Assembly: GCA_016784175.1 (NCBI GenBank)
Contig: JADHVC010000001.1
Location: forward strand, 5,567 to 69,566
From: Patescibacteria group bacterium
GTDB taxonomy: Bacteria > Patescibacteriota > Patescibacteriia > Patescibacteriales > BS150m-G62
Length of the DNA stretch: 64,000 nucleotides
Reading direction: 5' to 3'
Below the pieces are notes generated by a model that did no database searches, was not told where the DNA came from, and saw only the letters and a list, made by a program, of their open reading frames with translations. The position numbers and the translations under genes were made by a program. Positions 1,123-58,920 of the stretch are shown one piece after another (position 1 is the first letter of the stretch; each line of letters begins with the position of its first letter).

Positions 1123-2619
1123 TTAAGGACGCTTTTCCTGCCATAAAGGTAAACAAACACTAACATTTTCAACATTTGCTGAATTGTAACAATAATAGCC
1201 TTCATTATCAGTAACCTTCACAACCACATTCATGCTACCACCTTGTAAAAATTTAATTTCACTTGGCGCCATACTCATAGAAGTATTCGGTAAAGCCTGT
1301 TCAAAAGTCCACTCGTAATTACAAAAAGTATCATTACAAGTATGTTGATTGTCACCAGTTTCCGTTTTGTAATACTTTGTATTATCCGTAAAATACACAT
1401 TCTCACCAATATTCGGATATGTTGGCAACCAACTAAAGCTTGGATTTGGGAACTTATGATAATAAGTTGTAAATGTTAAATTTGGGTCAAAAGATTCTGC
1501 TAAATTTCCAGCTATATTATCTGTAACAACATGATTAAGTGCTGAGTCAGTATTAAATTGAAACCAATCTGATTCCTTTTCACGCTCATCCCAAACTTTT
1601 ATCCACCAATAATATGGCGTTCCATACTCCAACTCTGCCGTTGAACTCGCCCCACCATTTGCAAGAGCTGCCTTCAAATTAAACCTATTTGCAACCACTG
1701 TTGTCTGACAAGCAGATCCATCATATCCACCAGAGCATACCCCACCTGAATATGTACCTAAACATTTCCCTGTATCCAACACAGGAGAGCTAGTAGAATT
1801 TGTTGTATTTACAATAATTTGATAGGCCAATTCACAACCTCCAGCATCACGATCAGAAAAATCCCACTCTAAGAATGTTTGAAGCGAGCCATACCCAGAA
1901 CAGCCCTCTTCAAAACTCCAATTTGGAGCTGACAAATTTGCAAGCTCTGGTTTATTATTCACAAAATCACCAACTACTCTATAACCAATAATTAATGGGT
2001 TAGAACAGCCAGCTGGATCATCCTCGCAATTAAAACTTATCCATCCCACACCTACCTCTGAAGCAAGATCGCTATTCGTATTATTCCCATTCCAGCCATA
2101 TCCCCTAAAAAAACCAGTATCTGACTCCGCCCGAAGATTATACAAATCCGTTCCAGTACCACCATCGTGGTCAAATCTTATCCAACCAGAATCTCCAAGA
2201 CTCAATATCTTTGCCCAACCATACACCTTATTATCAATAAAATTATAACAAGCAGAACAGCTATTTTGATCATTACTATCACATGAACTTTCCTCAATAC
2301 ATCCATCAAAAAAACCAGCTGCTGAGCTATATCCATTCTCCTGAAAACTAATCCATCCCAAATTAGGCGACCAAGCATACCCCTCAAAATCACCAGTCAT
2401 TGGTTCCACATTCACTCCATAATTAACACTTCCACATGTAAAAGTATTAGTACAATTAAAACTTATCCAACCAAAATTACCTGCCCAAGCCCAACCATAA
2501 ACATTATCACTTGTATTAGCTTTAGCTACACTAAAACTAGCCAAAAACGTTAAAGCTAGTAAAAAAAATATTTTATTTATAAATAAAGTTTTCATTGTTT
2601 TAATATAATAACCCAACAT
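1123..2619 (-). CDS. secreted Cys-rich repeat protein with four G-W...GWISF repeats
   Basis: Signal peptide MKTLFINKIFFLLALTFLASFSVAKA. Four internal repeats: YGWAWAGNFGWISFNC, GYAWSPNLGWISFQ, YGWAKILSLGDSGWIRF, GYGWNGN..VGWISFNC. Many Cys. Sits between the minor pilins and pilD. Confidence 0.5.
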   Translation of the reverse strand: MLGYYIKTMKTLFINKIFFLLALTFLASFSVAKANTSDNVYGWAWAGNFGWISFNCTNTFTCGSVNYGVNVEPMTGDFEGYAWSPNLGWISFQENGYSSAAGFFDGCIEESSCDSNDQNSCSACYNFIDNKVYGWAKILSLGDSGWIRFDHDGGTGTDLYNLRAESDTGFFRGYGWNGNNTNSDLASEVGVGWISFNCEDDPAGCSNPLIIGYRVVGDFVNNKPELANLSAPNWSFEEGCSGYGSLQTFLEWDFSDRDAGGCELAYQIIVNTTNSTSSPVLDTGKCLGTYSGGVCSGGYDGSACQTTVVANRFNLKAALANGGASSTAELEYGTPYYWWIKVWDEREKESDWFQFNTDSALNHVVTDNIAGNLAESFDPNLTFTTYYHKFPNPSFSWLPTYPNIGENVYFTDNTKYYKTETGDNQHTCNDTFCNYEWTFEQALPNTSMSMAPSEIKFLQGGSMNVVVKVTDNEGYYCYNSANVENVSVCLPLWQEKRP

Positions 2620-3382
2620 ACCAATTTATAAGCTCTGAGCCCCAAAGCATCGTAATAACAGTGGAAAAAGTTAAAAAAACACCAAATGGAACCTCCGAGT
2701 CCATCTTCTTTTTTTTCATCGAGATTAAAGCAACCCCAATTATAGAACCAAGAATATACGAAATAAATAATGCCGCTAATATATTAGGCCAACCTAAGAT
2801 CATACCCATTAAAAATCCAAGCCTAATATCTCCACCCCCTATCCACCGACCACTAGAAACAATAAATTGAATTAAAAAGAAGCTCCCTCCAATTATAGCA
2901 GAAATTAACATACCCGACCAACTAGCTCCTGTTAGTAAGTTTAGCCCAAATATTAGAACAATAGCCGGCAAAGTCACTTTATCCAAAATTAAATAATATT
3001 TTAAGTCATAAATAAAAATCACCACCAATACAGCGATGATAAAAAAGTCACGGAATAGAGCAACAAACGCAACAGCATTATAATTTAAAAAGATATGATC
3101 ATGCCTTAACAAAAAGAACAGAACAAATAATGCCCCCGTAGCCAATTCGACCACAGGGTATTGCCAAGAAATAGATTTTTTACAATGTCGACATCTAGCT
3201 TTCAACCAAACATAACTTAAAACTGGCACATTGTCATACCAATCAATTTGAACCTTACATTTAGGGCACATTGATCTACCATCCACTCTCTTTTGCGCGT
3301 GCAATCGCCAAACAAAACAATTAATAAAACTTCCTATTGAAAGACCCAATATTAAAACTAACAGTATCGAAAATATAAGCAT
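2600..3382 (-). CDS. pilD: prepilin peptidase (A24 family), PilD-like
   Basis: N-terminal tetracysteine zinc-binding region: CPKCKVQIDWYDNVPVLSYVWLKARCRHCKKSISWQYPVVELATG. Polytopic membrane body. Lies in the pilus locus. Confidence 0.85.
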   Translation of the reverse strand: MLIFSILLVLILGLSIGSFINCFVWRLHAQKRVDGRSMCPKCKVQIDWYDNVPVLSYVWLKARCRHCKKSISWQYPVVELATGALFVLFFLLRHDHIFLNYNAVAFVALFRDFFIIAVLVVIFIYDLKYYLILDKVTLPAIVLIFGLNLLTGASWSGMLISAIIGGSFFLIQFIVSSGRWIGGGDIRLGFLMGMILGWPNILAALFISYILGSIIGVALISMKKKKMDSEVPFGVFLTFSTVITMLWGSELINWYVGLLY

Positions 3383-3403: not shown

Positions 3404-4777
3404 TTACTTACTTCCAAGCCCTTCCATATCTCCACGACTCTCATTGCCAAAAGTAACTCCGACAATCAGTACAGAGATCGGCGTATAGGTTAAAATGTTA
3501 CGCACAATAGCAGTGTAATTCAATACTGCCCAATAAGAATTTGTGAACAAATAAACCGCAAAAAATAACAATATTACCAAAAATAGATAAGCCCATGCAA
3601 AAATTAGATTCTTATCGCACATTATCTTTTTGAAATATACTAAGAATATAATAAAAAATATATACCACCAAACATTAAAACTATTTGTCAAAAAATATGC
3701 TGGCAAAATATTCTGAAATATTTCATAATGCAAGCCAAGCTCACCACCCTCATTCATGATCCCTAAATCATACTTAAACTTAAAAATCTCCCATGGCAAT
3801 GCCATCAAAAATACCACAATAAAATATCTTAATAATAGTCGACATTTCAAATCCCCTAACCTAGACATTAACATTAACATTATAAATACCGCGAAAACGA
3901 ATATTATACTTTCCGATTTAACAAAAAAAGAAATGCCATAAAAAATCGCAGATAGATACAAAAAAATCATTCTCCTTCTTTGTTGCCACATTAAGAGAAA
4001 ACCAAATCCACAAAGAATATAATAACTCAAAATTAAATCAGCATAAGCATTAAAACCATGATAAAAAAATAAAGGCATCGAGCTTAAAAAAAATACCAAA
4101 ACTAGACTATAAAATAGACTAACAAAATTAATCAACAAGCAAGAAAGCACAATAAGAGTAGCCACATAATATCCAAAAAAAATAAAATTAATATATACAT
4201 CATTATACTCACCGATTACATCATGCATCCAAAACTGTACAATTGAAACTAGCCACGGATAATTAGGATGAGATCCTCCTCCTAAATATTCAAAACTATC
4301 ACTATCTGTAAGTTCGACTCCTTGTGAAGAATACAAAAGCTTAGCCCTAAAAGCCCACATAGTAACACTATCGTAGGTTGCGACTGGACGTGAAAATGCA
4401 TTAAACGCAACCATGCTGATTTGAATAAAAATAAATAGCAACATCAATGCCTCCTTCAATCGTATTCTTTCCAACAAATGTGCAATTTTTTTTGCAACAT
4501 ATATTTTCTCATTTCGCACAAATCCTCTTTGATACATATCAGCTAAAATAACATTCTCAATCAATACTAAAAGCCAAAACCAATAAACATCTAGGTTCAA
4601 TTTAAAAAGAAATATCCAAATAAAAATTTGGATTGTAATAAAATACACTCCCACTCCATACGCCAAAGCTAAACGAAACAACAAACTAAATTTATTCTCT
4701 CGCAGAAATATACCAACAAGAAAATACCCTGGCACAAAAATCGAAATAAAAAAAATGGCTAAATTAATAATTATCAT
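3404..4777 (-). CDS. polytopic membrane protein of unknown function (possible GT-C-like partner)
   Basis: 457 aa, at least 10 predicted TM helices, no recognisable soluble domain. Overlaps the downstream GT-C gene by 14 nt, which suggests translational coupling. Confidence 0.4.
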   Translation of the reverse strand: MIIINLAIFFISIFVPGYFLVGIFLRENKFSLLFRLALAYGVGVYFITIQIFIWIFLFKLNLDVYWFWLLVLIENVILADMYQRGFVRNEKIYVAKKIAHLLERIRLKEALMLLFIFIQISMVAFNAFSRPVATYDSVTMWAFRAKLLYSSQGVELTDSDSFEYLGGGSHPNYPWLVSIVQFWMHDVIGEYNDVYINFIFFGYYVATLIVLSCLLINFVSLFYSLVLVFFLSSMPLFFYHGFNAYADLILSYYILCGFGFLLMWQQRRRMIFLYLSAIFYGISFFVKSESIIFVFAVFIMLMLMSRLGDLKCRLLLRYFIVVFLMALPWEIFKFKYDLGIMNEGGELGLHYEIFQNILPAYFLTNSFNVWWYIFFIIFLVYFKKIMCDKNLIFAWAYLFLVILLFFAVYLFTNSYWAVLNYTAIVRNILTYTPISVLIVGVTFGNESRGDMEGLGSK

Positions 4778-15042: not shown

Positions 15043-15495
15043 TTAACCACCCCAAATTCCAGCTTCAGAAGCTGTTTGAACACCTGCTGGAATCCCACCA
15101 GTCACATTCTCAAGACTATACTGAAGTTTATAAGCCCTTTTATTTACTGGATCTACATTCGTATAAGTATATTCAACATCTCCATTGGGCTGAGGCGTTT
15201 TTGGCACCCTTGTCATATATATTAAAGACGCATCCGAACAAGTCGAATTAAAACCAGAATTTTTTGAATCCAAACACTTATTCCCAATATCAACATTTTC
15301 ACCAGGAGGATAAGAATATTTATCATTATAATAAATTTCCAATGCCGATTGAAGCTGCTTTATATCTGAAATACGACGAGCATCTCTAGACTTCGATCTA
15401 GCTCCATTCAATGCAATCACAGCAAAAGTTGAAAGCAAACCAATTATGGCAATTACTACTAGCAATTCTATAAGAGTAAAACCTTTTTTATTCAT
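15043..15495 (-). CDS. type IV pilin (major pilin-like paralog 2)
   Basis: MNKKGFTLIELLVVIAIIGLLSTFAVIALNGARSKSRDARRISDIKQLQSALEIYYND is a canonical class III leader plus alpha-1 helix. Two Cys near the C-terminus, consistent with a D-region disulfide. Confidence 0.85.
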   Translation of the reverse strand: MNKKGFTLIELLVVIAIIGLLSTFAVIALNGARSKSRDARRISDIKQLQSALEIYYNDKYSYPPGENVDIGNKCLDSKNSGFNSTCSDASLIYMTRVPKTPQPNGDVEYTYTNVDPVNKRAYKLQYSLENVTGGIPAGVQTASEAGIWGG

Positions 15496-15540: not shown

Positions 15541-15627
15541 CAAATTAAAAAATATATTTAAGATACATGCCGTGCAGAAATGTGCATAAGTTCAAATCTG
15601 TATTTCCAGCGCATAAAACAACAAATT

Positions 15628-15679
15628 CCCCGTTCTGATTTTTAATGAAACTTCAATTTCATTAAAAAATAGAACGGGG
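15628..15679 (-). terminator. long hairpin (about 23-bp stem) immediately downstream of pilin paralog 1, a probable intrinsic terminator
   Basis: ccccgttctgatttttaatgaaa-cttcaa-tttcattaaaaaatagaacgggg is a near-perfect inverted repeat. On the transcribed minus strand it is followed by the U-rich tract aatttgttgtttt. Confidence 0.55.
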
Positions 15680-15718
15680 AATATTGAATCTTTAAGCAGG
15701 ATCCCTTTAAAGACTCAA

Positions 15719-16198
15719 TTAATCAACAATTTTAGAAGCACCATAGATACCAGCTTGTGAAGCAGTGTTCACGCCAGCTGGAACGCCACCAGCACCATTT
15801 TCTAAAGTATATTCGATCTTGTATTCTCTAGCATTTGCAGTGTCTGTATTCCTATACTTATATGCACTTCCATTTGGTGCAGGGTTAGAAGGAACTCTTG
15901 TCATATAAATAGTACCCGTTGGGTTACAAGTAGTTTCTACGAATCCATTTGTGAATAGTTGCAAACATTTATTACCAATTTCAATCGGATTAGCTCCAGT
16001 AGTAGGAGGATATCCATTAGCATCGTTATAATAAAGCTCTAAAGCAGATTGAATTTGCTTAATATCAGAAACACGACGTGCATCTCTAGACTTTGATCTA
16101 GCATTATTTAACGCAATAACAGCTAAAGTTGATAGTAAACCAATAATAGCAATTACTACTAATAGCTCGATTAATGTAAAACCTTTTTGTCTTTTCAT
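15719..16198 (-). CDS. type IV pilin (major pilin-like paralog 1)
   Basis: MKRQKGFTLIELLVVIAIIGLLSTLAVIALNNARSKSRDARRVSDIKQIQSALELYYND. Strong Shine-Dalgarno aagggggtga 7 nt upstream. Two C-terminal Cys. Confidence 0.85.
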   Translation of the reverse strand: MKRQKGFTLIELLVVIAIIGLLSTLAVIALNNARSKSRDARRVSDIKQIQSALELYYNDANGYPPTTGANPIEIGNKCLQLFTNGFVETTCNPTGTIYMTRVPSNPAPNGSAYKYRNTDTANAREYKIEYTLENGAGGVPAGVNTASQAGIYGASKIVD

Positions 16199-16339
16199 TA
16201 TTTCACCCCCTTTCTATTATAAATTATTATAAATATTATAAACAAACCTAAATATACATTTATCCACATTATAGCATACGCTAAAGAAACTTTCAACTAT
16301 CTCTTTTCAACATATTATAAACAACCGATCTACGACGCT

Positions 16340-16531
16340 GTTTAACTGCTCATTATGTCTGCATTATTTTTGAGCGTATATGGAATATGTAATAATTTTT
16401 AGCATAATTTAACTTAAAAAAATTTTATGTTTGAGTGAAGCGAGTTTAAAATTTTTGTTAAATTGTGCGTAAAAAATTGCCCAATATTCCATCCTAAGCG
16501 AAAAAGTGATGCAGGTATAGTGAGTACTTAC
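16340..16531. mobile_element. MITE-like element copy A (about 192 bp, 23-bp terminal inverted repeats)
   Basis: The ends are an inverted pair: left gtttaactgctcattatgtctgcat, right atgcaggtatagtgagtacttac. The body is about 90% identical to copy B. The right end abuts the pilC stop codon. Confidence 0.6.
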
Positions 16532-17739
16532 TACGCTGTTGCCATATTATACATGGGCAATATTACAGCTGCCACCATAGTTCCCACCGCAATTCCCATA
16601 ATAACCATAATAATTGGCTCCATTAATGTCATCAAATTATCGATTGTAGTATTTACCTCACGCTGATAAAACTGAGCCACTCTACCTAGAATCATATCCA
16701 ATTTGCCCGTCTTCTCTCCAATACTCGCCATTTGTGACATCATCTGAGGAATCAATTTCGAAGTTGACAACACACTTGACATAGGACTTCCGTCCTCTAC
16801 TTCTTCCGTTGTTTTTTTGATTAATTTCGCAAAAACCTTATTATTTACTACCTCACCAGACACCTTAAGACTCTCAGTTACAGTAATACCACCGGAAATC
16901 AAAGTCTCCATCGATCGTGAAAAACGAACAATATAAATCTTTTGAAACAACTTACCAAATATTGGCAACTTAAGTAATACATAATCAGCAACATATCCAC
17001 CTTTTGGAGTAGCAACATAGTACTTAAAACCAACGCCAGCACATATTGCACCGATAAAAATCAATATCCAATAATTTTGCATAAAATCAGACAATCCTAT
17101 TAAAATTCGTGTAGCAATAGGTAACTCCACGCCTGATTCAGTCAATACACCAGTCAATTTTGGCACAACAAATACCATCATCACGACACCGACAACAGTC
17201 AAACCAGTCATAACAAAAGCAGGATAAGTCATAGCACCCTTAATCTTTGACATCATATCATAATCCTTTTCCACTTCATCGGCCAAATAAGTTAATGACT
17301 CTGCTAATTTTCCAGAACTTTCGCCACCTCGTATTACACTAGTATGAAAACCAGTAAATACCTTTGGATGACGCGACATAGCATCAGACAGCCTAGAACC
17401 AGAATCAACCTCGTCTGCAACCTCTGAGATAAGCATTTTAAGCTTAATACTTTCAGTTTGCTCAACAATAATCTTTAAAGCTTGCACCATTGCAACATTA
17501 GCAGAAACCATAACCGAAAATTGCCTAAAAAATATCACAAGATCACGAGTTTTAACTGATGAACCAAAAGAAATTACAAAGTTCTTCGATGTAGCCTTGA
17601 TTTTTTGCGCTTCAACAAAAATAACCTTAAGGCCCTCAGCGACAACAAGCCCAGAAGCCTCTTTCTCACTCACCGCGTCCACCAACCCCTCCACTTCCTC
17701 GCCCTGGGTATTTATTGCTTTATATTTGAATACTGCCAT
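16531..17739 (-). CDS. pilC: type IV pilus assembly platform protein PilC (GspF family)
   Basis: 402 aa with two T2SS-F type repeats. N-terminus MAVFKYKAINTQGEEVEG.. is typical of PilC. Three TM segments. Confidence 0.85.
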   Translation of the reverse strand: MAVFKYKAINTQGEEVEGLVDAVSEKEASGLVVAEGLKVIFVEAQKIKATSKNFVISFGSSVKTRDLVIFFRQFSVMVSANVAMVQALKIIVEQTESIKLKMLISEVADEVDSGSRLSDAMSRHPKVFTGFHTSVIRGGESSGKLAESLTYLADEVEKDYDMMSKIKGAMTYPAFVMTGLTVVGVVMMVFVVPKLTGVLTESGVELPIATRILIGLSDFMQNYWILIFIGAICAGVGFKYYVATPKGGYVADYVLLKLPIFGKLFQKIYIVRFSRSMETLISGGITVTESLKVSGEVVNNKVFAKLIKKTTEEVEDGSPMSSVLSTSKLIPQMMSQMASIGEKTGKLDMILGRVAQFYQREVNTTIDNLMTLMEPIIMVIMGIAVGTMVAAVILPMYNMATA

Positions 17740-17762
17740 ATAATTATAGATTATATTCTTAC

Positions 17763-17951
17763 GTAACTACTCACTATATCTGCATTATTTTTGAGCGCAT
17801 ATGGAATATGTAGTAATTTTTAGCACAATTTAACTTAAAAAATTTTATGTTTGAGTGAAGCGAGTTTAAAATTTTTGTTAAATTGTGCGTAAAAAATTGC
17901 CCAATATTCAATCCTAAGCGAAAAAGTGATGCAGATATAGTGAGCAGTTAC
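17763..17951. mobile_element. MITE-like element copy B (189 bp, 23-bp perfect terminal inverted repeats)
   Basis: Left end gtaactactcactatatctgcat and right end atgcagatatagtgagcagttac are reverse complements. Sits between the response regulator stop and the pilC start. Confidence 0.6.
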
Positions 17952-17955
17952 ATTC

Positions 17956-18387
17956 TTACTTCTTTACTAATTGTTTTTTCTTTACTACAGAACTTTTTTT
18001 AGATTTCTTTAGAAGACCCTCTACTTTTTCTACGACCTCAGAAGGCATAAAATGCGCCTTCACTAAATAATCATCTGCTCCCATTGCAAGCCCCCTATCA
18101 ATATCTTTTCTTTGACTCAAATTAGTTAGCAAGATAATTGGTATACCATCAGTTTTTTTGTCTTTTTTAATCTCTCTTAAAAATCCAAAACCATCCAATT
18201 TCGGCATCAAAATATCAAGCAAAATAATATCAGGACTCTTTACTTTCACTAAATCTAATCCCTCCATACCATTCGAAGCTACGAAAACTTTATAATTTTC
18301 ACCTTCAAATTTTGTCGAGTAAATATTTAATAAAAAATAATCATCTTCAACAATCAAAATTACTCCTTTTGGTTTTTGCTTTACCAT
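17956..18387 (-). CDS. stand-alone response regulator receiver domain protein (CheY-like) with Lys-rich C-terminal tail
   Basis: ILIVEDDYFLL...ILLDILMP...DDYLVK shows the conserved receiver Asp residues and a phospho-acceptor in the LLDILMP context. The tail is KKSKKSSVVKKKQLVKK. Confidence 0.8.
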   Translation of the reverse strand: MVKQKPKGVILIVEDDYFLLNIYSTKFEGENYKVFVASNGMEGLDLVKVKSPDIILLDILMPKLDGFGFLREIKKDKKTDGIPIILLTNLSQRKDIDRGLAMGADDYLVKAHFMPSEVVEKVEGLLKKSKKSSVVKKKQLVKK

Positions 18388-18470: not shown

Positions 18471-20219
18471 TTAACCAGACACAACTCTAAATATTTCCTC
18501 CAAAGTAGTCTTCCCCTGTAGTGCTTTAATAATACCATCTTGCATTAAATCAATAAATGTTTGTGTTGCCTGCACATCGTCTAATGATATCGGTCTATCT
18601 GGCTCATATATCAATTTACGCAATTCATCATTAATATCAATGATCTCCGTAATAGCTAATCGACCAGTATATCCAGTATTTCCACATCGAGGACAACCCT
18701 CTCCCTTATAAAATTGAATCTTATCTACATCATAGCCCTTAATACGTCTTTTTAATACATCTATTGGGGTTTTTTTAAGACTATCATACACTTGCTTAGA
18801 AGCACTCTTTGGAAGATCTGCCTTTACTCGACAATTTGAACAAATTCTGCGAACCAATCTTTGAGCTAAAATAACATTAATAGTGGATGCCAACAAGAAT
18901 CTCTCAGCATTCATATCGATCAATCTAGGAATTGCTCCAATGGCGTTGTTAGTATGCAGTGTTGATAGAACTAGATGGCCTGTTAAGGCAGCGTGTATGC
19001 CGAGTTCAGCAGTTTCATTATCACGAATTTCTCCGACCATCATAATATCTGGATCTTGTCTTAACAATGTACGCAAACCAGATGCAAATGTATAGCCAAG
19101 TAGAGGTCTAATTTGAGACTGATTTACTCCAGGCACATAATACTCAACCGGATCCTCCAATGTAGAGATATTTACACCTTCCTTGTTGATCAAGTTAAGT
19201 ATTGAAAAAAGAGTAGTTGATTTACCAGACCCAGTTGGCCCAGTAATCAAAAATATACCATAAGTCTTTTTCATCTGCTCTCTAATAACCTTCCCTTCCC
19301 TATCCTCAAACCCAAGTTCCTCTAAAGTTGGAGCTCCTTTCGTAACATCTAAAATTCTCATTACAACCTTTTCAGTATCCACTAATGGAATAATTGAAAC
19401 ACGGAAGTCAATCTCATTATCATTAATAAGCAATCGAATACGACCACCCTGAGGAATTCTTGTTTCGTCCAATTTTAAACCAGCCAAAACTTTAATTCTT
19501 GCCACAACCGCATAGTGAATATTTTTAGGTAAAACCAAAGAAGTATGAAGTATTCCATCAATACGATATCTAACCCTAGTCTCCCTAAGCAATGGCTCAA
19601 TATGAATATCACTTGCTTTACCATCAACCGCATGCCTAATAATAACAGAAACAATCTTTGTAACTGGGGCTGATTTAACAACTTCCTCAAGCTCTACACT
19701 TTCAACCTCCTTCTCTTTAATTTCAATCAACTCTTTATCATCCTCCTCCTTAGCCTGTAACGCGGAAACCACTTCCCTACTCATTGATTCGTATTGCTTC
19801 CTAGCATGATTATAGCTAGCAGATGAGATCAAAAAATATTCAATTCTTAGCTGCTTCTTTTTAGCCAAAAAATCCAAAGCACCGATTGCCTTAAAATCAT
19901 CAGGGTTAACTAAACCAACCTTCATAGTTTTTTCATCTTTTTGAAAACAGATAGCCTTATAATTTTCCGAAACCTCATTCGGAATCATATTAAGATCCAT
20001 GTCATTAATCTTTGCAGAAAAAAGGTTTATATATTCAATACCGCTCAAACTAGCCTTCAAATTAATTAACTTCTCTTCGTCAATAAGTTGTTTAGATATC
20101 AACACAAACTCTAAAGATTTCTTCTTTTCATTCGCTTGCTCTTCAGCCTTACTAATATTTACCTGACTTATTAAATTATTTTTTACTAGAGCTTTAATGA
20201 GCTCAGATTTTTTTACCAT
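18471..20219 (-). CDS. pilB: type IV pilus assembly ATPase PilB (GspE family)
   Basis: Walker A GPTGSGKSTT, Asp/His boxes, and the tetracysteine CSNCR...CPRCGNTG. N-terminal GSPII_E_N-like region. Confidence 0.9.
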   Translation of the reverse strand: MVKKSELIKALVKNNLISQVNISKAEEQANEKKKSLEFVLISKQLIDEEKLINLKASLSGIEYINLFSAKINDMDLNMIPNEVSENYKAICFQKDEKTMKVGLVNPDDFKAIGALDFLAKKKQLRIEYFLISSASYNHARKQYESMSREVVSALQAKEEDDKELIEIKEKEVESVELEEVVKSAPVTKIVSVIIRHAVDGKASDIHIEPLLRETRVRYRIDGILHTSLVLPKNIHYAVVARIKVLAGLKLDETRIPQGGRIRLLINDNEIDFRVSIIPLVDTEKVVMRILDVTKGAPTLEELGFEDREGKVIREQMKKTYGIFLITGPTGSGKSTTLFSILNLINKEGVNISTLEDPVEYYVPGVNQSQIRPLLGYTFASGLRTLLRQDPDIMMVGEIRDNETAELGIHAALTGHLVLSTLHTNNAIGAIPRLIDMNAERFLLASTINVILAQRLVRRICSNCRVKADLPKSASKQVYDSLKKTPIDVLKRRIKGYDVDKIQFYKGEGCPRCGNTGYTGRLAITEIIDINDELRKLIYEPDRPISLDDVQATQTFIDLMQDGIIKALQGKTTLEEIFRVVSG

Positions 20220-32966: not shown

Positions 32967-33929
32967 ATGATTTCATCACTAAAAACAATTGATCTTCATC
33001 AAGACATATTATTAAACACAAAATATCCAGATTCTCAAAAAGACGATTCTCAAACTAGCTTTGATATGCTTAAAGCAGCAAACATTAAAATTGTTTTAGG
33101 TTCTGTTTTTCCCATACCACCACAAGAAAATTTTTTTCACCCCAAAGTTAATTCTCTAATAACAAGTGATATAAATTCATATATCAATCAATGCAAACTA
33201 GATATTAATTTTTCGATTATTTTTAATAAAGAAATTCTAAACGATATCATAACAAGCCAAACTAAATACGGCATAATAATCCACATAGAAGGACTAAATG
33301 TTTTTAAAGACCAATGCAGTGATTGGAGACTTTTAGAAAACTGGTTCAATTTGGGCCTCCGATCGATTGGTCCAATCTGGAATTTACACAATAGCTTTGG
33401 AGGTGGTGCACAAGACAATCAAATAGGTTTAACTAGCCTAGGTCATGAACTAATTGAATGGGCAGAAAACAAAGGAGTTCTTATAGATTTCGCTCACATG
33501 AACCCAAAAACTTTTATGGGAGCCGCTAAAATATCCAACAAACCAATACTAGTAAGTCATGGAAATGCTTATGATTTATGCTCAAAAATAAGGAACTACG
33601 ATAAATTACAGCTCAAGCAAATTGCCGAGTCAAATGGTGTTATTGGTATATTTTTTGCTGGTAATTTTATTAAACCTAGTGGGCAACTAAACCTTCAAGA
33701 TGTTGTAGATCATTTTGATTATATTAAAAAAACTATTGGGATCAATCACATATCTATCGGGTCCGATTTTGGTGGAATTATTAATCGAAAAATTAATGGC
33801 CTTGCAAAATCAACCGATCTCCCCGCCCTATATCAAACCCTAGAAAAAAGAGGATATACCCAAAATGAAATTCAAAAAATATCTTACGAAAATGCACTTA
33901 GAGTATTAAATAGTAATATACAATCCTAA
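32967..33929 (+). CDS. membrane dipeptidase (peptidase M19)-like protein
   Basis: N-terminal IDLHQD and later HGNAYD...GSDFGG motifs resemble the M19 renal-dipeptidase family. The last codons and stop lie inside a MITE fragment. Confidence 0.45.
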   Translation: MISSLKTIDLHQDILLNTKYPDSQKDDSQTSFDMLKAANIKIVLGSVFPIPPQENFFHPKVNSLITSDINSYINQCKLDINFSIIFNKEILNDIITSQTKYGIIIHIEGLNVFKDQCSDWRLLENWFNLGLRSIGPIWNLHNSFGGGAQDNQIGLTSLGHELIEWAENKGVLIDFAHMNPKTFMGAAKISNKPILVSHGNAYDLCSKIRNYDKLQLKQIAESNGVIGIFFAGNFIKPSGQLNLQDVVDHFDYIKKTIGINHISIGSDFGGIINRKINGLAKSTDLPALYQTLEKRGYTQNEIQKISYENALRVLNSNIQS

Positions 33930-33963
33930 GCGAAAAAGTAATGCAGATATAGTGAGCACTTAC
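33921..33963. mobile_element. MITE right-end fragment (43 bp)
   Basis: caatcctaagcgaaaaagtaatgcagatatagtgagcacttac matches the right terminus of the MITE copies at 16340 and 17763. Confidence 0.45.
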
Positions 33964-40470: not shown

Positions 40471-40493
40471 ACAATATAAACACTAAAAAAAAC

Positions 40494-40548
40494 GTAACTG
40501 CTCACTATACCTGCATTATTTTTGAGCGCATATGAAATAAGCAGTTAC
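40494..40548. mobile_element. internally deleted mini-copy of the MITE (55 bp)
   Basis: gtaactgctcactatacctgcat + tatttttgagcgcatatg + aaataagcagttac: the left TIR and first roughly 18 bp of the element are joined to the last roughly 10 bp of the right TIR. Confidence 0.45.
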
Positions 40549-40550
40549 TA

Positions 40551-40590
40551 AAAAAAACACCTCGCTTAATTGTTATGCGAGGTGTTTTTG
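40551..40590. terminator. bidirectional intrinsic terminator between convergent genes
   Basis: acacctcgc-ttaattgttat-gcgaggtgt hairpin flanked by an A-run and a T-run. Confidence 0.5.
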
Positions 40591-47329: not shown

Positions 47330-48039
<710 letters not shown>

Positions 48040-48059
<20 letters not shown>

Positions 48060-48186
48060 AATCGGATTTCGCTATCATCTCGACCAATTGGTCAAATTTT
48101 ATTTTTGGCTCCCAGCCTAAAATATTTTTAGCCTTTGAATAATCACCCAACACCACGTTCACTTTAATAGTTAAAAAGAATACCAT
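48040..48186 (-). pseudogene. C-terminal remnant (about 40 codons) of an NDP-sugar 4,6-dehydratase (Gmd-like)
   Basis: The translation ..[37 protein letters not shown] matches the conserved C-terminus of GDP-mannose 4,6-dehydratase. It overlaps the fcl start. No upstream body is present. Confidence 0.5.
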
Positions 48187-48205
48187 TTTTCATATTTTTA
48201 ATAAA

Positions 48206-48847
48206 TTAAGAATTACTGATAGCCTCCTGAGCATTAACTATAAAATCATTAGCAATCATACGATTATTCCACAATTTTATTATATTCATAACTAACTTAT
48301 TTTTATCCCCAATATCCACCAATAATCCATTCACATCGTTGGTAATAAATTTCGAATAAGCATCAATATTTGAAGCAATTATTGGCACACCCACCTTCAT
48401 CGCTTGTCTTAATCTATCCTGATTAAACCCCAAAGAATCATTTAGTACAAGCATATCGCTTGCCTTCATTAACTTATATAATTCTACATTATCAAGATTA
48501 GTAGAAAAAAATATCGATTTTCCCAACTCAAGTTCTTTAATTTTTGCCTTAATGCTCTCCTCTTGGTCCAAGCTACCAACAATAATTAATTTAAATCCTG
48601 GATTAGCTTGAATCAACTCTGGCATTATGCCGATAAGAACATCGCAATGTTTTTCTTTATTTGAATTAGTTATCGCAAGCACAATATCACCTTTTAAGCC
48701 TAATTCAATTTTAAGCGTACTTTTTCCTTGTTTTATTTCTGGAATATTAGCAATATGTATTACCTTATCGATAATACTTGCCTCATTTTTCCAATAACCT
48801 AGAACTTTATTTAAAATATTTTTCATATAAACTAACAATTGATTCAA
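48206..48847 (-). pseudogene. glycosyltransferase family 1 (GT4-like) C-terminal domain only, a probable truncated remnant
   Basis: The 213 aa contain the GT-B C-terminal nucleotide-binding half (..LIIVGS...E..LK..SD..V.......G..EA...G.P.I.S). No N-terminal acceptor domain is present. Confidence 0.45.
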
Positions 48848-48929
48848 ATTATTTCATTGACTTACAACTCTCTCACAATTATACTATTAATATAGTTAAA
48901 AAATCAAAAAAAATTAACATACGCACTAT

Positions 48930-49190
48930 ATGCTTGTTACAATAACAATAAGCAAGGGAGAAAAAAGAAAGAATATTGCATTAGTTAGTGCTGTTAGTTT
49001 ATTTATGGTTGTAATTATACTGTTTTGGGGGATAAATTTTAATAAAGGATTAGCTAGCGCTAATGACGAGCCTAGCTTACTTAACAATTTTGAAGAATCT
49101 AGTAATGGAATATACGAAGTAATATATACTTTTAAGAAAGATTATGAAAAGATAAAAGATAATCAAGAGATAATAGTCCCCGAACTATAA
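48930..49190 (+). CDS. small hypothetical membrane protein
   Basis: 86-aa ORF with one TM helix. Confidence 0.3.
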   Translation: MLVTITISKGEKRKNIALVSAVSLFMVVIILFWGINFNKGLASANDEPSLLNNFEESSNGIYEVIYTFKKDYEKIKDNQEIIVPEL

Positions 49191-49227
49191 CCAGAATAAT
49201 ATATTTAATAATAAATAACGAATAAAC

Positions 49228-51849
49228 ATGTCCGACAATAACGAAGAAAAAATAAATAACAAAGATGAAACAGGTGATGATATAACCAAAGATGAAATAA
49301 AAAAAGATGATACTGTAGCTGAAGCGGATATCAAAGATAACGAGGATAAAACAAAAGAGATTGTAGAAATAAACTCTAATATTGTTACAGAAAAAAAATA
49401 CACCGCTTTTGGTTTAGTTGAACCGCTCGCTATCACCGACGAAATGAAAAAAAGCTATCTCGAATATGCTATGAGTGTTATCGTCACTCGTGCTCTTCCA
49501 GACGTAAGAGATGGATTAAAGCCAGTACACAGAAGAATACTTTATGCTATGTGGACAGTTGGACTGAAAGCTAATGGTAAATTTAGAAAATCAGCTACCG
49601 TAGTCGGAGAAGTACTTGGTAAATATCATCCACATGGTGACTCTGCTGTTTATGATTCTATGGTAAGAATGGCACAAGATTTTTCAATGCGTTATCCATT
49701 AGTAAGGGGACAAGGAAATTTTGGCAGCATGGATGGAGACAGAGCAGCTGCTATGCGTTACACAGAAGCTAAGCTTTCGGCTATTTCTGAAGAATTGCTT
49801 TTTGATATAGACAAAGATACGATCGATTTTTCACCAAACTTTGATGGGTCAAACAAAGAACCAAAGGTCCTACCAGCCAAGCTTCCAAACCTATTATTAA
49901 ACGGCACTATGGGCATTGCAGTTGGAATGTCCACCAATATCCCACCACACAACTTAAGTGAATTAATTGATGCCATTACCTACCTAATCGATAAACCAGA
50001 GGCAACCATAGAAGAACTAGCAGAGTTTATCAAAGGACCTGACTTTCCTACTGCCGGCATTATCTATAACAAAAAAGACATTTTACAAACCTACATTACA
50101 GGAAGAGGTGGAATTGTGATGCGCGCAAAGACAGAAATCTATGAAACAAAAGAAGGTCGATTTCAAATCATCATTACCGAACTACCATATCAAGTTAATA
50201 AAGCCAATTTAGTAGAAAAAATTGCAGATTTAGTGCGCAACAAAAAAATTGAAGGCATTAAAGATTTGCGTGATGAGTCAGACAAAGAGGGCGTAAGAGT
50301 TGTTGTCGATTTAAAGAAGGATTGTTATCCAAAAAAGATACTTAACAGCTTATTTAAACACACTCAACTGCAAGACACCTTTCATGTAAATATGCTTGCT
50401 TTAATTGATGGATTGCAACCAAAAGTATTAACTCTCAAGTCAATCTTAGAAGAATATATTAAGCACAGAGAGGTAGTAGTTAAAAGAAGAGCTGAATTTG
50501 AGTTAAAAAAGGCCAAGGCACGCGCGCATATTCTAGAAGGATTAATGATAGCATTAAACAATATTGATGCTGTTATAGCCCTAATTAAGAAGTCAAAAGA
50601 TCGCGAAGAAGCAAAACTTGGCTTAATAAAACAGTTTAAGTTAAGTGAAATCCAGTCGATTGCAATTCTTGAGATGAGATTGCAAAGTCTTGCGAACTTG
50701 GAACGATTACGAATCGAAAATGAACTAAAAGAAAAAAATGAAATAATTAAAGAACTTGAAGGAATCCTAGCTTCTCGAGAAAGAATTCTTGGAATAATCA
50801 AAGAAGAAATCAAAGAAATCAAAGAAAAATACGGTGACGAAAGACGAACACAAATTATATCACGAGGCGTAAAAGAATTTGGCATAGAAGATCTTGTACC
50901 TAACGAAGAAACAATGATCGTTATGACAAGAGACGGATACATTAAACGCTTCCCTACTGACACATTTAAAGTACAAGGCAGAGGTGGCAAAGGTGTTGTA
51001 GGACTCTCAACTAAAGAAGAGGATTCTGTTGAGTTCATGTTCACCACTATGACACATACTGACATATTATTCTTTACTACTCGCGGAAGAGTATTCCAAT
51101 TAAAAGCTTTTGAAATCCCTCAAACATCAAGAACTGCCAAAGGACAAGCAATTGTAAATTTCTTGCAATTGCCAGGCAATGAGAAAGTAACTTCCATCTT
51201 ACCTCTCGATAAAATCAGCAACAAAAACTACCTATTCTTTGCAACTGAAAAGGGCTTGGTTAAAAAAGTTAAACTAGAAGAATTTTCAAATGTAAGAAGA
51301 TCAGGTCTAATAGCAGTAAAGATCAAAGACGATGATAAATTAATTTGGTCTAAACCAAGCTCTGGAAAAGACCACATTATCCTTGTAACAGCTAAAGGGC
51401 AAGCCATAAGATTCCCAGAAGAAGACATACGATCAATGGGAAGAACAGCAGCTGGCGTAACAGGCATCAAACTTAAAAAAGATGACTATGTGGTAGGCAT
51501 GGGAATAATTAACACCAATCCAGAAAAACTTAAAAAATATGAAGTATTTTCAATTTCTGAACAAGGCCTTAGCAAGAGAACAGCCCTTAAAGAATATAAA
51601 AAACAAGGTAGAGGTGGTAGTGGCCTAAAGACAGCAAAAGTAACTAGTAAGAGTGGTAATCTTATCAATGCCTTCGTAATAAACTCCGAAAAGATGCAAG
51701 ACAAAGATTTAATTATTATATCTACTGGAGGTCAAGTTATTAGACTCGCCTTTAAAAATGTACCGCAATCAGGTAGAGACACTCAAGGAGTAAAATTAAT
51801 GCGCTTTAAAAACACTGGAGATAAAGTAGCTTCTCTTATCTGGACATAA
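49228..51849 (+). CDS. gyrA: DNA gyrase subunit A
   Basis: The region around [28 protein letters not shown] has the conserved structure. The catalytic Tyr region and C-terminal beta-pinwheel repeats are present. A roughly 60-aa acidic/Lys-rich N-terminal extension precedes it. Confidence 0.9.
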
Positions 51850-54401: not shown

Positions 54402-56011
54402 TTGCTTATTGTTTTAAAGGGTGGTAACTTTATATTAAAGTTAAAAAATTATGATTCTATGACTAAAGTAAAAGAGAAAAAACAATCCACCTCTGCCAAT
54501 ATCGGTTTTGAAGAAAAGCTTTGGGCAACTGCTGATAAAATGCGTAATAATATGGATCCGGCTGAATATAAGCATGTTATTCTAGGTCTCATTTTTTTAA
54601 AGTATATTTCCGATTCATTTGAAGAGTTGCATGTTAAATTAAAAAATGATTCGGAAGGACTGGACGATCCGGAAGATAAAGATGAATATAAAGCTGAAAA
54701 TGTTTTTTGGGTGCCAAAAGAAGCTCGTTGGTCATATATTACAATTAACGCTAAAAAACCGGAGATTGGAAAGTTAATTGATGATGCCATGGTTTTAATC
54801 GAAAAAGAGAACCCTAATTTAAAAGGTGTGTTACCTAAAATTTATGCTCGTCATGATTTAGACAAAGTTAAACTTGGAGAAATAATCGACACAATTGGCA
54901 CTATCGGCATGGGAGATAAAGAAAGTAAGTCAAAAGATATGCTTGGTCGTATTTATGAATATTTTATCGGTCGATTTGCTGGAGCAGAAGGCAAAGGCGG
55001 AGGAGAGTTTTTACGCCACAATCAGTAGTTAAATTATTAGTCAGCATGCTTGAGCCATATAAAGGTAGAATTTATGATCCTTGTTGTGGTAGCGGAGGCA
55101 TGTTTGTGCAAAGTGAAAAGTTTATTGAAAGCCACGGTGGTAACAAAGACGATATCGCTGTTTATGGTCAGGAGTCAAATCCAACCACTTGGAGATTGTG
55201 CAAAATGAATTTAGCTATTCGCGGTATTGCTGGGAACATTGGATCAATTCATGCCGATAGTTTTCGTAATGATTTACATAAAGATTTGAAAGCAGATTTT
55301 ATCCTTGCTAATCCACCATTTAACATAAGTGATTGGGGCGGAGAACAGCTTAAAGATGATGTGCGTTGGAAATATGGCATGCCACCAACCGGCAATGCTA
55401 ACTATGCTTGGATAGAGCATATGATCCATCACCTTTCACCAACAGGAATCGCTGGTTTTGTTTTGGCTAATGGCTCTCTTGCGTCTAATACTTCAGGCGA
55501 AGGAGAGATTAGAAAAAAACTTATTCAAAATGGTTTAGTGGACTGCATTGTCGCTATGCCACCACAACTTTTTTATACTACTCAAATTCCGGCTTGCCTT
55601 TGGCTTGTTTCTCGTGATCGCTATGATCATAAACTTCGCGATCGACATAAAGAAATATTGTTTATAGATGCTCGTAAAATGGGTACTATGGTAACTAGAA
55701 AGAATCGCGAATTAACCGATGAAGATATCGCTAAAATTTCTAGTACTTATCATAGCTGGCGTAGCATTAACGGTAAATATGAAGATGTAAAAGGATTCTC
55801 TAAGGCGGCGAACATGGAAGAAGTAGAAAAGAATGGCTTTGTTTTGACTCCAGGTCGTTATGTTGGATCGGATTATGTAGAAGAAGATGACGAAGTGTTT
55901 GAAGAAAAAATGAAAAGATTGACCGGTGAATTGTCAGGACAGTTTAAGCAATCAAAGGAGTTGGAGGAGAGGATAAAGAAAAATTTAGAAAGCATTGGTT
56001 TTAAGATATAA
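54402..56011 (+). pseudogene. hsdM: type I restriction-modification methyltransferase subunit HsdM, disrupted by a frameshift in a T5 run (annotated as two ORFs, 54402-55028 and 55046-56011)
   Basis: An HsdM N-terminal domain (..LWATADKMRNNMDPAEYKHVILGLIFLKYISD) is followed by ..GGGEF. The correct continuation [31 protein letters not shown]...NPPFN is in the -1 frame from the T-run at 55008-55012. One extra T would restore EFFTPQS. Confidence 0.7.
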
Positions 56012-56014
56012 AAT

Positions 56015-56665
56015 ATGTGGTATCTATATTTAGATGAAAGTGGAGATCTGGGTTTCGATTTTGTCAATAAAAAGCCGTCAAAATTTTTTACGGTTACTAT
56101 TTTAGCGTTAAGTTGTCACGATGCTAATCGCCAGTTGATTAAAGCAGTCAAAACCACAATTCGTCATAAGTTAAACAAATCAAAGAATCAAAAAAGAGTA
56201 GCGAAAGAACTAAAAGGTACTGGCACAACACTGGACGTCAAGAAGTATTTTTTTGAAAAGGCTAAGAATGTTAAATTTGGAGTTTACTCTATTACGCTAA
56301 ACAAGAAACGTGTTTTTGAAAAGTTATCTAAAGACAAGTCAAGAGTTTACAACTATATTGCCAGACAAGTACTTGATCAAATTCCTTTTGAAAAAAATAA
56401 TAGTGATCGTGTTGAATTGATTTTAGATAAATCTATGGCCAAACCGGAAATAAAAGAATTTAATGCTTATATAAGACGCCAACTTGAAGGTCGCTTGTCT
56501 CCGAATGTGCCGCTTGATATTTATCATTGGTTATCACATGAGAATTATGGCCTACAGGCAGCGGATTTGTTTTGCTGGGGAATATTCCAAAAATATGAAC
56601 GACAGAATAAGGACTGGTTTAATGTTTTTGCAGATAAGATATTGTTTGATGAACAATTTTTATAA
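56015..56665 (+). CDS. DUF3800 family protein embedded between hsdM and hsdS
   Basis: N-terminus MWYLYLDESGDLGF is the hallmark YxDESG motif of DUF3800. It starts 4 nt after the hsdM stop. Confidence 0.6.
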   Translation: MWYLYLDESGDLGFDFVNKKPSKFFTVTILALSCHDANRQLIKAVKTTIRHKLNKSKNQKRVAKELKGTGTTLDVKKYFFEKAKNVKFGVYSITLNKKRVFEKLSKDKSRVYNYIARQVLDQIPFEKNNSDRVELILDKSMAKPEIKEFNAYIRRQLEGRLSPNVPLDIYHWLSHENYGLQAADLFCWGIFQKYERQNKDWFNVFADKILFDEQFL

Positions 56666-56843: not shown

Positions 56844-58085
56844 ATGGCTAATAACCAAACAAAATTTAAAGAAACAGAAATAGGAACCATCCCAGAGGAA
56901 TGGGATGTTTTTGATATTCAAACTGTTTCTGATGTTGTCGGTGGTGGTACTCCATCAACAACAAATAATAATAATTTTAACGGTGAGATTCCGTGGATAA
57001 CACCGAGAGACCTGTCTTCATATCAGGATCGGTTTATTTCCCGTGGTGAGAGATGTATTTCAGAGGAAGGACTTAACTCAAGCAACGCTAAATTATTACC
57101 GGTCAATACAGTTTTATTGACGACAAGAGCCCCTGTTGGGTATCTTGCTATCGCAAAAAATGAAGTTACTACCAATCAGGGATTCCACAGTCTAATTCCA
57201 AACAATAAGACAAATAGTCTTTTTCTTTTTTACCTTTTGAAAAATAATGTTGAAAAACTTATCAGCAATGCTTCTGGTAGTACTTTTCAAGAACTTAATG
57301 GCAAAACACTAAAGTCATTAGAGTTTGCTTTTCCAAGAATTAGCGAGCAAGAACAAATCGCCGAAATCCTTTCCTCTCTTGATGATAAAATAGAACTTAA
57401 TCGTAAAATAAATGCTAACTTAGAAAAGATAGCGAGTGCTTTGTTTAAGAGGTGGTTTGTTGATATTGGCGATGAATTGCCGGAGAGGTGGAAAATGGGA
57501 ACGATTGGAGATTTTGGAAAAGTTAAATCAGGTTTCGCATTTAAGGGAGAATGCTTTAATGATCAAGAGGGAGTGCCGGTTATTAAAATTAAAAATATTA
57601 TTGAGCCAAATGTTGATTTAAATAATGTTGATTATGTTTCTGATGAATTAGTGAACAAAAAAGCAAAAGAGTTCATTCTGGAAGCAGGAGATATTTTAAT
57701 CGCTATGTCCGGCAATACTACCGGCAAGATTGGTATTATGCCTAAGACAAAAAATGATTATGTTTTAAATCAGCGGGTCGGCAAATATTTTTTAAAAGAT
57801 AAAAATAATTTAGGCTATGTATATTTCTATTTAAGAAGCGGCGACATTCAAGAAAATATAATTCAGGCCGCATATGGCAGCGCGCAACCAAATATTAGTC
57901 CAAGTATTCTAGAAAATATAAAAATTATTATTCCCGATAATGCAGCATTAAACACTTTTAATAACGTGGCAAATAATGCTATAGAAATAATTGTAAGGAA
58001 CAATTTTGAAATTAATGTTTTAACAGAACTAAGAGATTCTATTTTGCCTCGATTAATGAGTGGAAAAATAAGAGTAAAAATATGA
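56844..58085 (+). CDS. hsdS: type I restriction-modification specificity subunit HsdS
   Basis: Two target-recognition domains separated and followed by conserved HsdS repeats (..LPEEWDV..., central ..LFKRWFVD.., C-terminal ..LRDSILPRLMSGKI). Confidence 0.85.
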   Translation: MANNQTKFKETEIGTIPEEWDVFDIQTVSDVVGGGTPSTTNNNNFNGEIPWITPRDLSSYQDRFISRGERCISEEGLNSSNAKLLPVNTVLLTTRAPVGYLAIAKNEVTTNQGFHSLIPNNKTNSLFLFYLLKNNVEKLISNASGSTFQELNGKTLKSLEFAFPRISEQEQIAEILSSLDDKIELNRKINANLEKIASALFKRWFVDIGDELPERWKMGTIGDFGKVKSGFAFKGECFNDQEGVPVIKIKNIIEPNVDLNNVDYVSDELVNKKAKEFILEAGDILIAMSGNTTGKIGIMPKTKNDYVLNQRVGKYFLKDKNNLGYVYFYLRSGDIQENIIQAAYGSAQPNISPSILENIKIIIPDNAALNTFNNVANNAIEIIVRNNFEINVLTELRDSILPRLMSGKIRVKI

Positions 58086-58920
58086 ACAATCCAATAAAAC
58101 AACACACGGTGCCTAATTTTTATTTAAAAAACTTTGCAGATAAAAATTTATGTGTTTGGGTATGTGATAAAAAGAAAAAGGAACTCAGGAAGCAACCAAC
58201 CAAAGACACGGCTATAATTAATGATTATTACACATTTATAAATAGTTCGAATGAAAAAGATTATAAAGTTGAAAAGGAGTTATTTGCAAGCACGATAGAA
58301 AAAGAAATGAGTGCCATACAAAATAAAATTTTAAATAATTTGGAATATGATGATAATGATAAAAAAATAATTTGCAGATTTTTAACATTTCAATTTTCGC
58401 GAACAACAAAATTCAAGGAAGATTTTGAAAAAATTTATACAAGCATCTTAGGAGAAACTTTAAATAATAAATTTTGTAATGAAAAAATAAAAAGAATTGC
58501 GTGAGTCCGCATAAAAAATTGCATCTAAGAGCAATGGCTAAATTTTATGAAAAATTTTATAATGCTTTTTTGAAATTAAACTTTTTATTTTTAATAACTA
58601 GTGGAAAGGGCGTTGATCAATTTATTACATCTGATAATCCAGTTATTTTATTTGGCTTTGAAAAGTTAAATGGAAAATTTTATAATTTTAAGACTATTTA
58701 TTTCCCTTTTTCGCCTTCAATAGCATTGTTACTAAATGATAAATGCTTAGGAATAAAAAATATTAATAAACAAAAAACCGAATTATTTAATAGCACAACA
58801 ATAAAACAATCTGATCAGTATTTAATATCTAATAGTCGGAAACTATTATTAAATATAAAGTTAATTACAAAAAGTTACGATCAGGAAAAAATTAAAAAAA
58901 TGATAAGTGAAATTTTATGA
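58082..58920 (+). CDS. DUF4238-like protein, present as two overlapping ORFs (58082-58504 and 58501-58920) embedded between hsdS and hsdR
   Basis: ORF1 begins ..[11 protein letters not shown], the N-terminal DUF4238 signature. ORF2 contains ITSDNPVIL, the central DUF4238 motif. The ORFs overlap by GTGA. The start overlaps the hsdS stop (ATGA) and the end overlaps the hsdR start (ATGA). Confidence 0.5.

Follow-up and report, generated by a model that had tools for sequence, protein, structure and literature searches.

A miniature transposable element inserted on both sides of pilC in a Patescibacteria bacterium, and a hairpin loop that it has in common with repeats of other phyla

Correia, ERIC, RUP and MITEAba12 sequences, with which a MITE (a transposable element of miniature size with inverted repeats) of bacteria can be compared, reside at intergenic or 3'-end sites within transcription units and are co-transcribed with their neighbours. 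Palindromes of the IS200/IS605 type and REP/REPIN sequences have neither terminal inverted repeats nor target duplications, and carry subterminal hairpins or GTAG-type units. Among insertion sequences, ISDge4 (IS66 family, ISBst12 group) encodes a single 449-aa transposase and is flanked by an 8-bp direct repeat (PMC12898284). In this report, we describe a MITE from a Patescibacteria group bacterium (contig JADHVC010000001.1). Two copies flank pilC, a gene of the type IV pilus (pil) operon, in the 64-kb stretch of DNA that was analysed and is called the window below. No description of MITEs in Patescibacteria was found in the searchable literature.

It is highly probable that these two repeats are separate insertions of a 189-190-bp MITE of chimeric build, most likely mobilised by an ISBst12-type IS66 transposase. 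They would represent an active or recently active MITE family that has inserted twice into a core type IV pilus operon of a small-genome bacterium, where the insertions part pilC both from the pilins and from the gene of its regulator. Of most interest as a lead is the hairpin module at the core of the element, which recurs across phyla. A preliminary description of the window had recognised the MITE family; the 8-bp duplications, the IS66/ISBst12-type ends and the core-hairpin loop common to several phyla were absent from it.

Where loci have to be told apart, L001, L002/L003, L085 and L087 denote pil loci of relatives (other assemblies), and L083 is a Joint Genome Institute (JGI) metagenome contig. 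L006-L082 (for example, L015, L027 and L040) are loci from outside the Patescibacteria with hairpin repeats that share the loop.

Separate insertions beside pilC and at other loci

The two copies have the same orientation and are 94.2% identical over 189 nt, a closer similarity than the roughly 90% reported in the preliminary description. That account had also placed repeats of about 190 bp on either side of pilC, with 23-bp terminal inverted repeats. The repeats are real, with boundaries refined to those in Table 1, and their inverted ends extend over 23-30 nt at 87-90% complementarity (30 nt at 90% in copy 2). The "gt" at 16340-16341, previously counted as part of copy 1, belongs to its target-site duplication and lies outside the element. 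The end sequence is far from a chance recurrence, as the 23-mer GTAACTGCTCACTATATCTGCAT has 6 matches in the window at three or fewer mismatches and none is expected (100 shuffles). As previously described, the element is non-coding: no open reading frame (ORF) of at least 50 aa lies wholly inside either copy. The whole element is near-palindromic, with a DNA fold of -42.1 kcal/mol (z = -9.6) and, for copy 2 in the sense of the pil mRNA, an RNA fold of -63.9 kcal/mol (z = -11.3).

Each copy carries its own 8-bp target-site duplication, perfect for copy 2 and with one mismatch for copy 1; by our own arithmetic from the 33% GC content of the window, a perfect match would arise by chance with a probability of about 4e-5. 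All full-length copies fit this 8-bp register. The match is 7/8 for a variant copy in a relative (L001, 11912-12103) and 6/8 for the copy on the metagenome contig. Also as reported earlier, copy 1 abuts the stop codon of pilC, and copy 2 takes up the space from there to the response-regulator gene on the other side of pilC. The last base of copy 1 overlaps this stop codon (16531-16533, TAG on the - strand), which in its present form combines the terminal C of the element with the first base of the right duplication. When copy 1 and its right duplication are removed in silico, PilC ends in ILPMYNMATAS*, identical to the end of PilC in L001, which is the nearest of the relatives with empty sites. 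A similar reconstruction gives an ancestral regulator-to-pilC spacer of 19 nt, compared with 216 nt now.

Unoccupied sites are present in relatives. Five related loci of other assemblies have the genes in the same order (pilB, regulator, pilC, pilin), and L001, L002/L003 and L087 have both pilC junctions without the element; their regulator-pilC gaps measure 13, 88 and 11 bp, respectively, versus 216 bp in the window. The window PilC is 100% identical to a protein with the NCBI label 'Patescibacteria group bacterium'; its closest relatives are 79-83% identical to it, and include 'Candidatus Falkowbacteria'.

One of the related loci, L085 (PilC 80% identical), has at its regulator-pilC junction a different, 158-bp palindromic element (3806-3963). 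This element has 26-nt inverted ends (ATACCACATCCAATTAACGCTTCGGA) and an RNA fold of -73 kcal/mol (z = -10.8), and is unrelated to the MITE. Because it sits in the same spacer, the junction was hit independently, and this junction seems to accept insertions repeatedly.

Further copies of the MITE occur at unrelated loci. The copy in L083 is 98.9% identical, and is located between a gene for a small membrane protein and a tRNA-Gln gene. A diverged member (L001:11912-12103; 192 bp, ~67% identical) lies between the two pilin genes of that relative; it has the ends ATAGCTGCTCAC...GTGAGCAAGTAT, the 8-bp duplication ATATAAAA/ATATAGAA and the same loop motif. Within the window, two partial copies lie at convergent gene junctions, as the preliminary description had it. 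The first is a right-end fragment that is 94% identical. Its presence had been noted, and its extent had been given as 43 bp from 33921; it is in fact 49 bp long (33915-33963). It lies where the genes for an M19 peptidase and ThiI converge, contains the stop codon of the former (33927-33929), and provides that of the latter (33960-33962, - strand) through its terminal GTAA. An end of the MITE is thus involved in stop codons, present or original, of three genes (those for PilC, the M19 peptidase and ThiI). The second partial copy, an internally deleted 55-bp mini-copy that we find as first described, is placed between the convergent genes for an amino-acid kinase and a GT2 glycosyltransferase, in the A-tract of a terminator-like hairpin (40550-40589). 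This hairpin (AAAAAAAACACCTCGC...GCGAGGTGTTTTT), preceded by an A-run and followed by a T-run, has the look of a bidirectional terminator.

Since the copies are direct repeats with a single gene between them, they could be imagined to form one unit with pilC, either through a local duplication or as a composite transposon or cassette that imported the gene. We regard this as very improbable. A composite transposon would duplicate its target only at the outer ends, whereas each copy here has its own matching 8-bp flanks; together with the synteny conserved in five related loci that have the same gene order without the element, this rules out the import of pilC by a composite transposon. Copies at unrelated loci, empty sites and the duplications exclude a simple local duplication. 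Thus, the inverted termini are real, further copies exist, and the MITE interpretation given earlier is strongly borne out by inverted repeats, lack of coding capacity, 8-bp duplications, the occurrence of copies at other, unrelated places and the unoccupied sites of relatives.

Terminal repeats and the probable transposase family

The ends of the MITE (GTAACTGCTCA...; terminal repeats GTAACTGCTCACTA and GTAACTACTCACTA, in short form GTAACTGCTCAC and GTAACTACTCAC) start with GTAAC. Taken together with the 8-bp duplication, ends of this type are a match to the ISBst12 group within the IS66 family. We compared them with two members. ISDge4 has the terminal repeats GTAACTGCTCAGCA and GTGACTACTCAGCA, compared here as GTAACTGCTCAG and GTGACTACTCAG (PMC12898284). 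An IS66-like element on the Geobacillus kaustophilus plasmid pHTA426 consists of a single ORF for a transposase with DDE_Tnp_IS66 and zf-IS66 domains. The termini of this element read GTATCTATTCAGCCC...GGGCTGAATAGTTAC (compared as GTAACTATTCAG and GTATCTATTCAG), and its 8-bp duplication, GACGAGTT, is perfect. The first 11 nt of the MITE end are identical to one terminal repeat of ISDge4, from Deinococcus geothermalis, and 12 of 14 nt match overall. Past ~12 nt, the terminal repeats of the MITE diverge from those of both ISDge4 and the pHTA426 element.

Several observations weigh against this assignment. The transposase is a presumptive one, named from the end sequence and duplication length alone. 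The cognate enzyme that the preliminary description suggested looking for did not turn up: no transposase of the IS66 or any other type was detected in the window by a Pfam search of all ORFs of at least 90 aa, and tblastn with the pHTA426 transposase found none in the 64-kb window or in any fetched locus. No autonomous element with these ends was found in the window, the fetched relatives or two collection scans, and the terminal-repeat pattern had 0 matches in a genome collection of 185,579 species and matched a single JGI metagenome contig (L083). Finally, the direct repeat that flanks the mini-copy (TAAAAAAAAC; 40484-40493 and 40549-40558) is perfect over 10 bp (10/10), not 8 bp.

On the IS66-type reading, the 23-30-bp terminal inverted repeats would be the binding sites of a DDE transposase that is encoded elsewhere and inserts the element by means of an 8-bp staggered cut. 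Copy 1 went into the final codon of pilC, where the terminal G-TAA of the element would have re-created a serine codon and a stop codon; the right-hand duplication changed afterwards to give the present TAG. Copy 2 inserted four bases past the stop codon of the response-regulator gene. The element looks chimeric, in that the outer ~45 nt on each side are IS66-type ends and the inner ~100 nt are a hairpin module.

A core hairpin with relatives in several phyla

The inner hairpin of the MITE ends in an apical loop of ~20 nt (TGTTTGAGYGAAGCGAGTT). A 21-nt pattern over the hairpin apex (TTTGAGYGAAGCGAGTTYAAA), used as the query in a scan of the genome collection, gave 77 exact matches, compared with ~1 expected by chance (our own estimate, for 596 Gb). 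The matching organisms include Flavobacterium, Apibacter, Carboxylicivirga, Marinilabiliaceae, Fermentimonas, Proteiniphilum, Pasteurellaceae, Calditrichaeota, Clostridium perfringens, Megamonas, Nitrospiraceae and Lysobacterales, among others. The module is present in at least the Patescibacteria, Bacteroidota, Pseudomonadota (Pasteurellaceae, Lysobacterales), Calditrichota, Bacillota and Nitrospirota, and several genomes each have many copies of the loop. Most matches (72/77) are intergenic. In about 76 of the 77, the match forms the apex of a long, imperfect hairpin and has TG before it, the exception being a Crocosphaera match inside an ORF. The hairpins span a median of ~126 nt (determined by walking the stem), within repeat units of up to ~200 nt.

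The stems adjoining the loop vary by taxon and stay paired. On average, 9.25 of 10 stem positions next to the loop are paired, versus 7.1 +/- 0.13 when arms are swapped between sequences, and 36 distinct 3' 10-mers occur among 57 distinct stems. Invariance of the loop is partly by construction, because the loop served as the query; independent of the query are the flanking TG, the stem statistics and two variant copies. In one variant, a second copy in L065, the loop is kept and the closing stem is different. In the other, from L046, a longer stem-loop replaces the central GC-GAA-GC, and the flanking loop strands are kept. A pairing of TTTGA with TCAAA inside the loop, which was the choice of RNAalifold, was rejected, since both variants covary with the outer partner. 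We therefore prefer a loop of 19-20 nt, and the conserved unit looks like yTGTTTGAG-YGAAGC-GAGTT.

The resemblance between the MITE and these repeats extends beyond the loop. In addition to the loop yTGTTTGAGYGAAGCGAGTT, they share the closing pairs ATTTR/YAAAT, a similar hairpin span and an asymmetric internal loop with TAGC opposite GCGTAAAA (GCGT(T)AA(G/A)AA). The inner ~100 nt of the MITE align to a Calditrichaeota repeat at 72% over 103 nt (E = 2e-9). Given this core alignment and the common internal loop, the MITE looks like a set of IS66-type ends around a hairpin module. Unlike the MITE, most of the cross-phylum repeat families lack GTAAC terminal repeats, and end in a T-run and a second hairpin instead. 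A flank of a Pasteurellaceae repeat (L040) that resembles the MITE end was dismissed as a chance similarity, as it is not found in other copies.

Among the other loop-bearing families, 38 of 70 elements have a T-run after the hairpin, compared with 9 of 70 that have an A-run before it, and the gene upstream of the motif is more often co-oriented with it (43 versus 20, p = 0.005). To judge from their arrangement, the loop elements outside the Patescibacteria look like forward-oriented hairpins of the terminator type. A second pyrimidine/purine hairpin, TTCTTTTG...CAAAAGAA, often follows the T-run (for example, L015:4460-4700, L027:4780-4970 and L040:5790-5990). A pseudoknot with this second hairpin could arise in Bacteroidota and Calditrichaeota through a CTTGAT/ATCAAG pair. 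Flavobacterium units begin with TGAGTGAAGC, which is similar to half of the loop.

The two strands of the hairpin are not equivalent. The loop-forward strand is predicted to be more stable than its complement in 68 of 71 elements (mean -61.1 versus -48.9 kcal/mol; 494 versus 236 G-U pairs). In copy 1 of the MITE, the + strand folds with -66.5 kcal/mol and 10 G-U pairs, whereas the - strand reaches only -38.7 kcal/mol and has no G-U pair; its divergence has thus kept the fold of one strand and not that of the other. The - strand is both coding and rich in G. On a deamination bias, it is this strand that should have gained G-T pairs, contrary to the observation. That the + strand fold is kept against this expectation suggests selection on it. 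Covarying stems and a strand-specific fold are what a functional, structured nucleic acid usually shows.

These data bear on the possibility that the functional unit is the hairpin core, be it a structured RNA specific to one strand or single-stranded DNA in folded form, whose conserved loop would be recognised by a protein or another nucleic acid, with the transposon ends serving only to carry it. In the window, the core would act from the + strand, which is antisense to the pil genes; this reading is compatible with the MITE explanation. Favourable to it are the identical loop at 77 places across phyla with adjoining stems that differ yet pair, the strand preference, the retained + strand fold of copy 1, and the L046 and L065 variants, which keep the loop strands or the loop. 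However, part of the loop invariance follows from the query, no Rfam family matches, the window copies lack the T-run that most other families have after the hairpin, and no convincing promoter for + strand transcription was recognised in these copies. On balance, we consider a functional core possible, but doubtful.

Searches for an existing identity of the hairpin gave no candidate. Rfam 15 had nothing relevant for the window region (E <= 1), for 12 related loci (at the gathering score) or for 8 loci (E <= 5). A covariance model of the loop region detected no additional copies in the window or the Patescibacteria loci. Viral contigs had 0 matches to the loop motif, and hence gave no sign of a phage origin. 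When 526 ORFs were compared all against all, no protein family recurred beside the 77 loop loci, and thus no candidate for a cognate enzyme emerged. Plasmids gave only short apex matches to the MITE, in Aureibacter and Chondrinema, at sites that carry no annotation. In the searchable full text (subscription literature lay outside it), no published account of the loop sequence or of related hairpin repeats was found; a published intrastrand-triplex motif that was considered is an unrelated E. coli motif. With this caveat, and that of the loop having been the query, we treat the inner hairpin module as undescribed.

We tentatively propose, with a confidence somewhat short of even, that the inner hairpin is an undescribed, widespread structured element (RNA or single-stranded DNA) that occurs in different mobile repeats, and that its loop, yUGUUUGAGYGAAGCGAGUU, is a recognition site for a conserved protein or nucleic acid. 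The loop may be built around the tandem AGYGA-AGCGA, and the MITE may be one vehicle of the element, using IS66-type ends. If this is true, the hairpin loop is a new widespread motif, and the MITE is an example of a set of transposon ends that has captured a hairpin module.

The pil operon and comparison with described repeats

The preliminary description suggested that the copies carry promoter-like and hairpin-forming sequence and could serve as transcriptional punctuation (terminator or promoter) in the pilus operon. In such a role, they would end or attenuate transcription behind the regulator gene and behind pilC, or start it for pilC or the pilins. The hairpin-forming content is evident, and the stability of copy 2 in the sense of the pil mRNA (-63.9 kcal/mol) is in keeping with this role, as is the terminator-like setting of related hairpins elsewhere, judged by the T-run and gene-orientation counts given above. 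The promoter-like content did not hold. Only two promoter-like sites lie inside the elements, both with 9 of 12 matches, which is the background level; in the whole region, 23 such sites were counted, which is not above the 15.9 +/- 4.1 expected. The strongest promoter candidate of the region, that of the pilins, is outside copy 1. It is kept in L001 and L002, relatives without the element at that site, and so predates the insertion of copy 1. On both strands, the two copies were free of called terminator-like sites, and the flanks are not T-rich, with no U-tract after the hairpin. The window copies also face the other way from the pil genes. Given that pilC is intact and had an ancestral spacer of only 19 nt, an essential pilus gene would be shut off if copy 2 terminated transcription strongly. 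A punctuation role is therefore unlikely.

The pil transcript would instead read through a long hairpin that is non-canonical as a terminator, and pilC would still be transcribed by read-through from the pilB-regulator unit across the 189-nt hairpin. RNase III-type processing has been described for other MITEs. Most probably, the insertions are passengers that the operon tolerates; they could change how the mRNA is processed or how stable it is, and their influence on pil expression is conjectural. As 94% identical direct repeats 1.4 kb apart, the copies are a ready substrate for deletion of pilC by homologous recombination.

Table 1. Positions of the MITE copies and of pil operon features in the window
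Feature	Position	Strand	Details
Pilin genes (two)	15719-16198 and 15043-15495	-
Pilin promoter candidate	16268..16296	-	TTGAAA-17-TGcTATAAT; 5' of first pilin gene
Copy 1 left target-site duplication	16334..16341		GACGCTGT; ancestral sequence kept
MITE copy 1	16342..16531	+	190 bp; between pilC stop codon and pilin promoter; loop-forward strand, antisense to pil genes
Loop motif, copy 1	16428..16446	+	TGTTTGAGTGAAGCGAGTT
pilC	16531..17739	-	T2SSF family, 402 aa, intact; between both MITE copies
Copy 1 right target-site duplication	16532..16539		TACGCTGT; 7/8 match to left
Copy 2 left target-site duplication	17755..17762		ATTCTTAC; 8/8
MITE copy 2	17763..17951	+	189 bp; between response-regulator stop codon and pilC start codon
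Loop motif, copy 2	17848..17866	+	TGTTTGAGTGAAGCGAGTT
Copy 2 right target-site duplication	17952..17959		ATTCTTAC; includes response-regulator stop codon 17956-17958
Response-regulator receiver gene	17956..18387	-	5' of pilC
pilB	18471-20219	-
Right-end MITE fragment	33915..33963	+	49 bp
Internally deleted mini-copy	40494..40548	+	55 bp; left 45 nt and last 9-10 nt retained

Several other features of the window were recorded. Between the two pilin genes lies an inverted repeat (15625-15682) with 26-nt arms that are 92% complementary and a 6-nt loop; it is unrelated to the MITE. Upstream lie additional pilus genes, of which two are pilin-like with N-methyl motifs (4-537 and 534-1091) and one encodes a prepilin peptidase (2600-3382). 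GC skew, which is -0.29 at the pil region, turns positive near 48-50 kb; it passes from about -0.3 to +0.1 at ~48000-50000, where the cumulative minimum adjoins gyrA (49228-51849), marking a candidate replication origin. The methylase gene hsdM of a type I restriction-modification system (54402-56011) is in two ORFs (HsdM_N, 54402-55028; N6_Mtase, 55046-56011), a split that is probably due to a frameshift or a stop codon. A DUF3800 gene (56015-56665) lies between hsdM and hsdS, and a DUF4238 gene between hsdS and hsdR consists of two overlapping ORFs (58082-58504 and 58501-58920). A gene for an NAD-dependent epimerase/dehydratase (47330-48059) is likewise represented by two overlapping ORFs on the - strand (47592-48059 and 47330-47743).

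An identity of the MITE with IS200/IS605-type or REP/REPIN sequences is ruled out by its long terminal inverted repeats and 8-bp duplications. A search of E. coli genomes with a Pasteurellaceae relative of the hairpin produced no match, and hence no link to ERIC or REP. In its general build, the MITE is like the Correia elements of Neisseria, ERIC of enterobacteria, RUP of pneumococcus and MITEAba12, all of which are 100-200 bp long, with terminal inverted repeats and a hairpin formed by the whole element. Unlike the MITE, they duplicate TA or 9 bp and derive from other insertion sequence families, and to our knowledge none of them carries the loop motif. The closest likeness is to the ISBst12 group, with which the MITE shares ends that begin 5'-GTAAC and a target-site duplication of 8 bp, and from which it differs as an element of 190 bp without a transposase gene.

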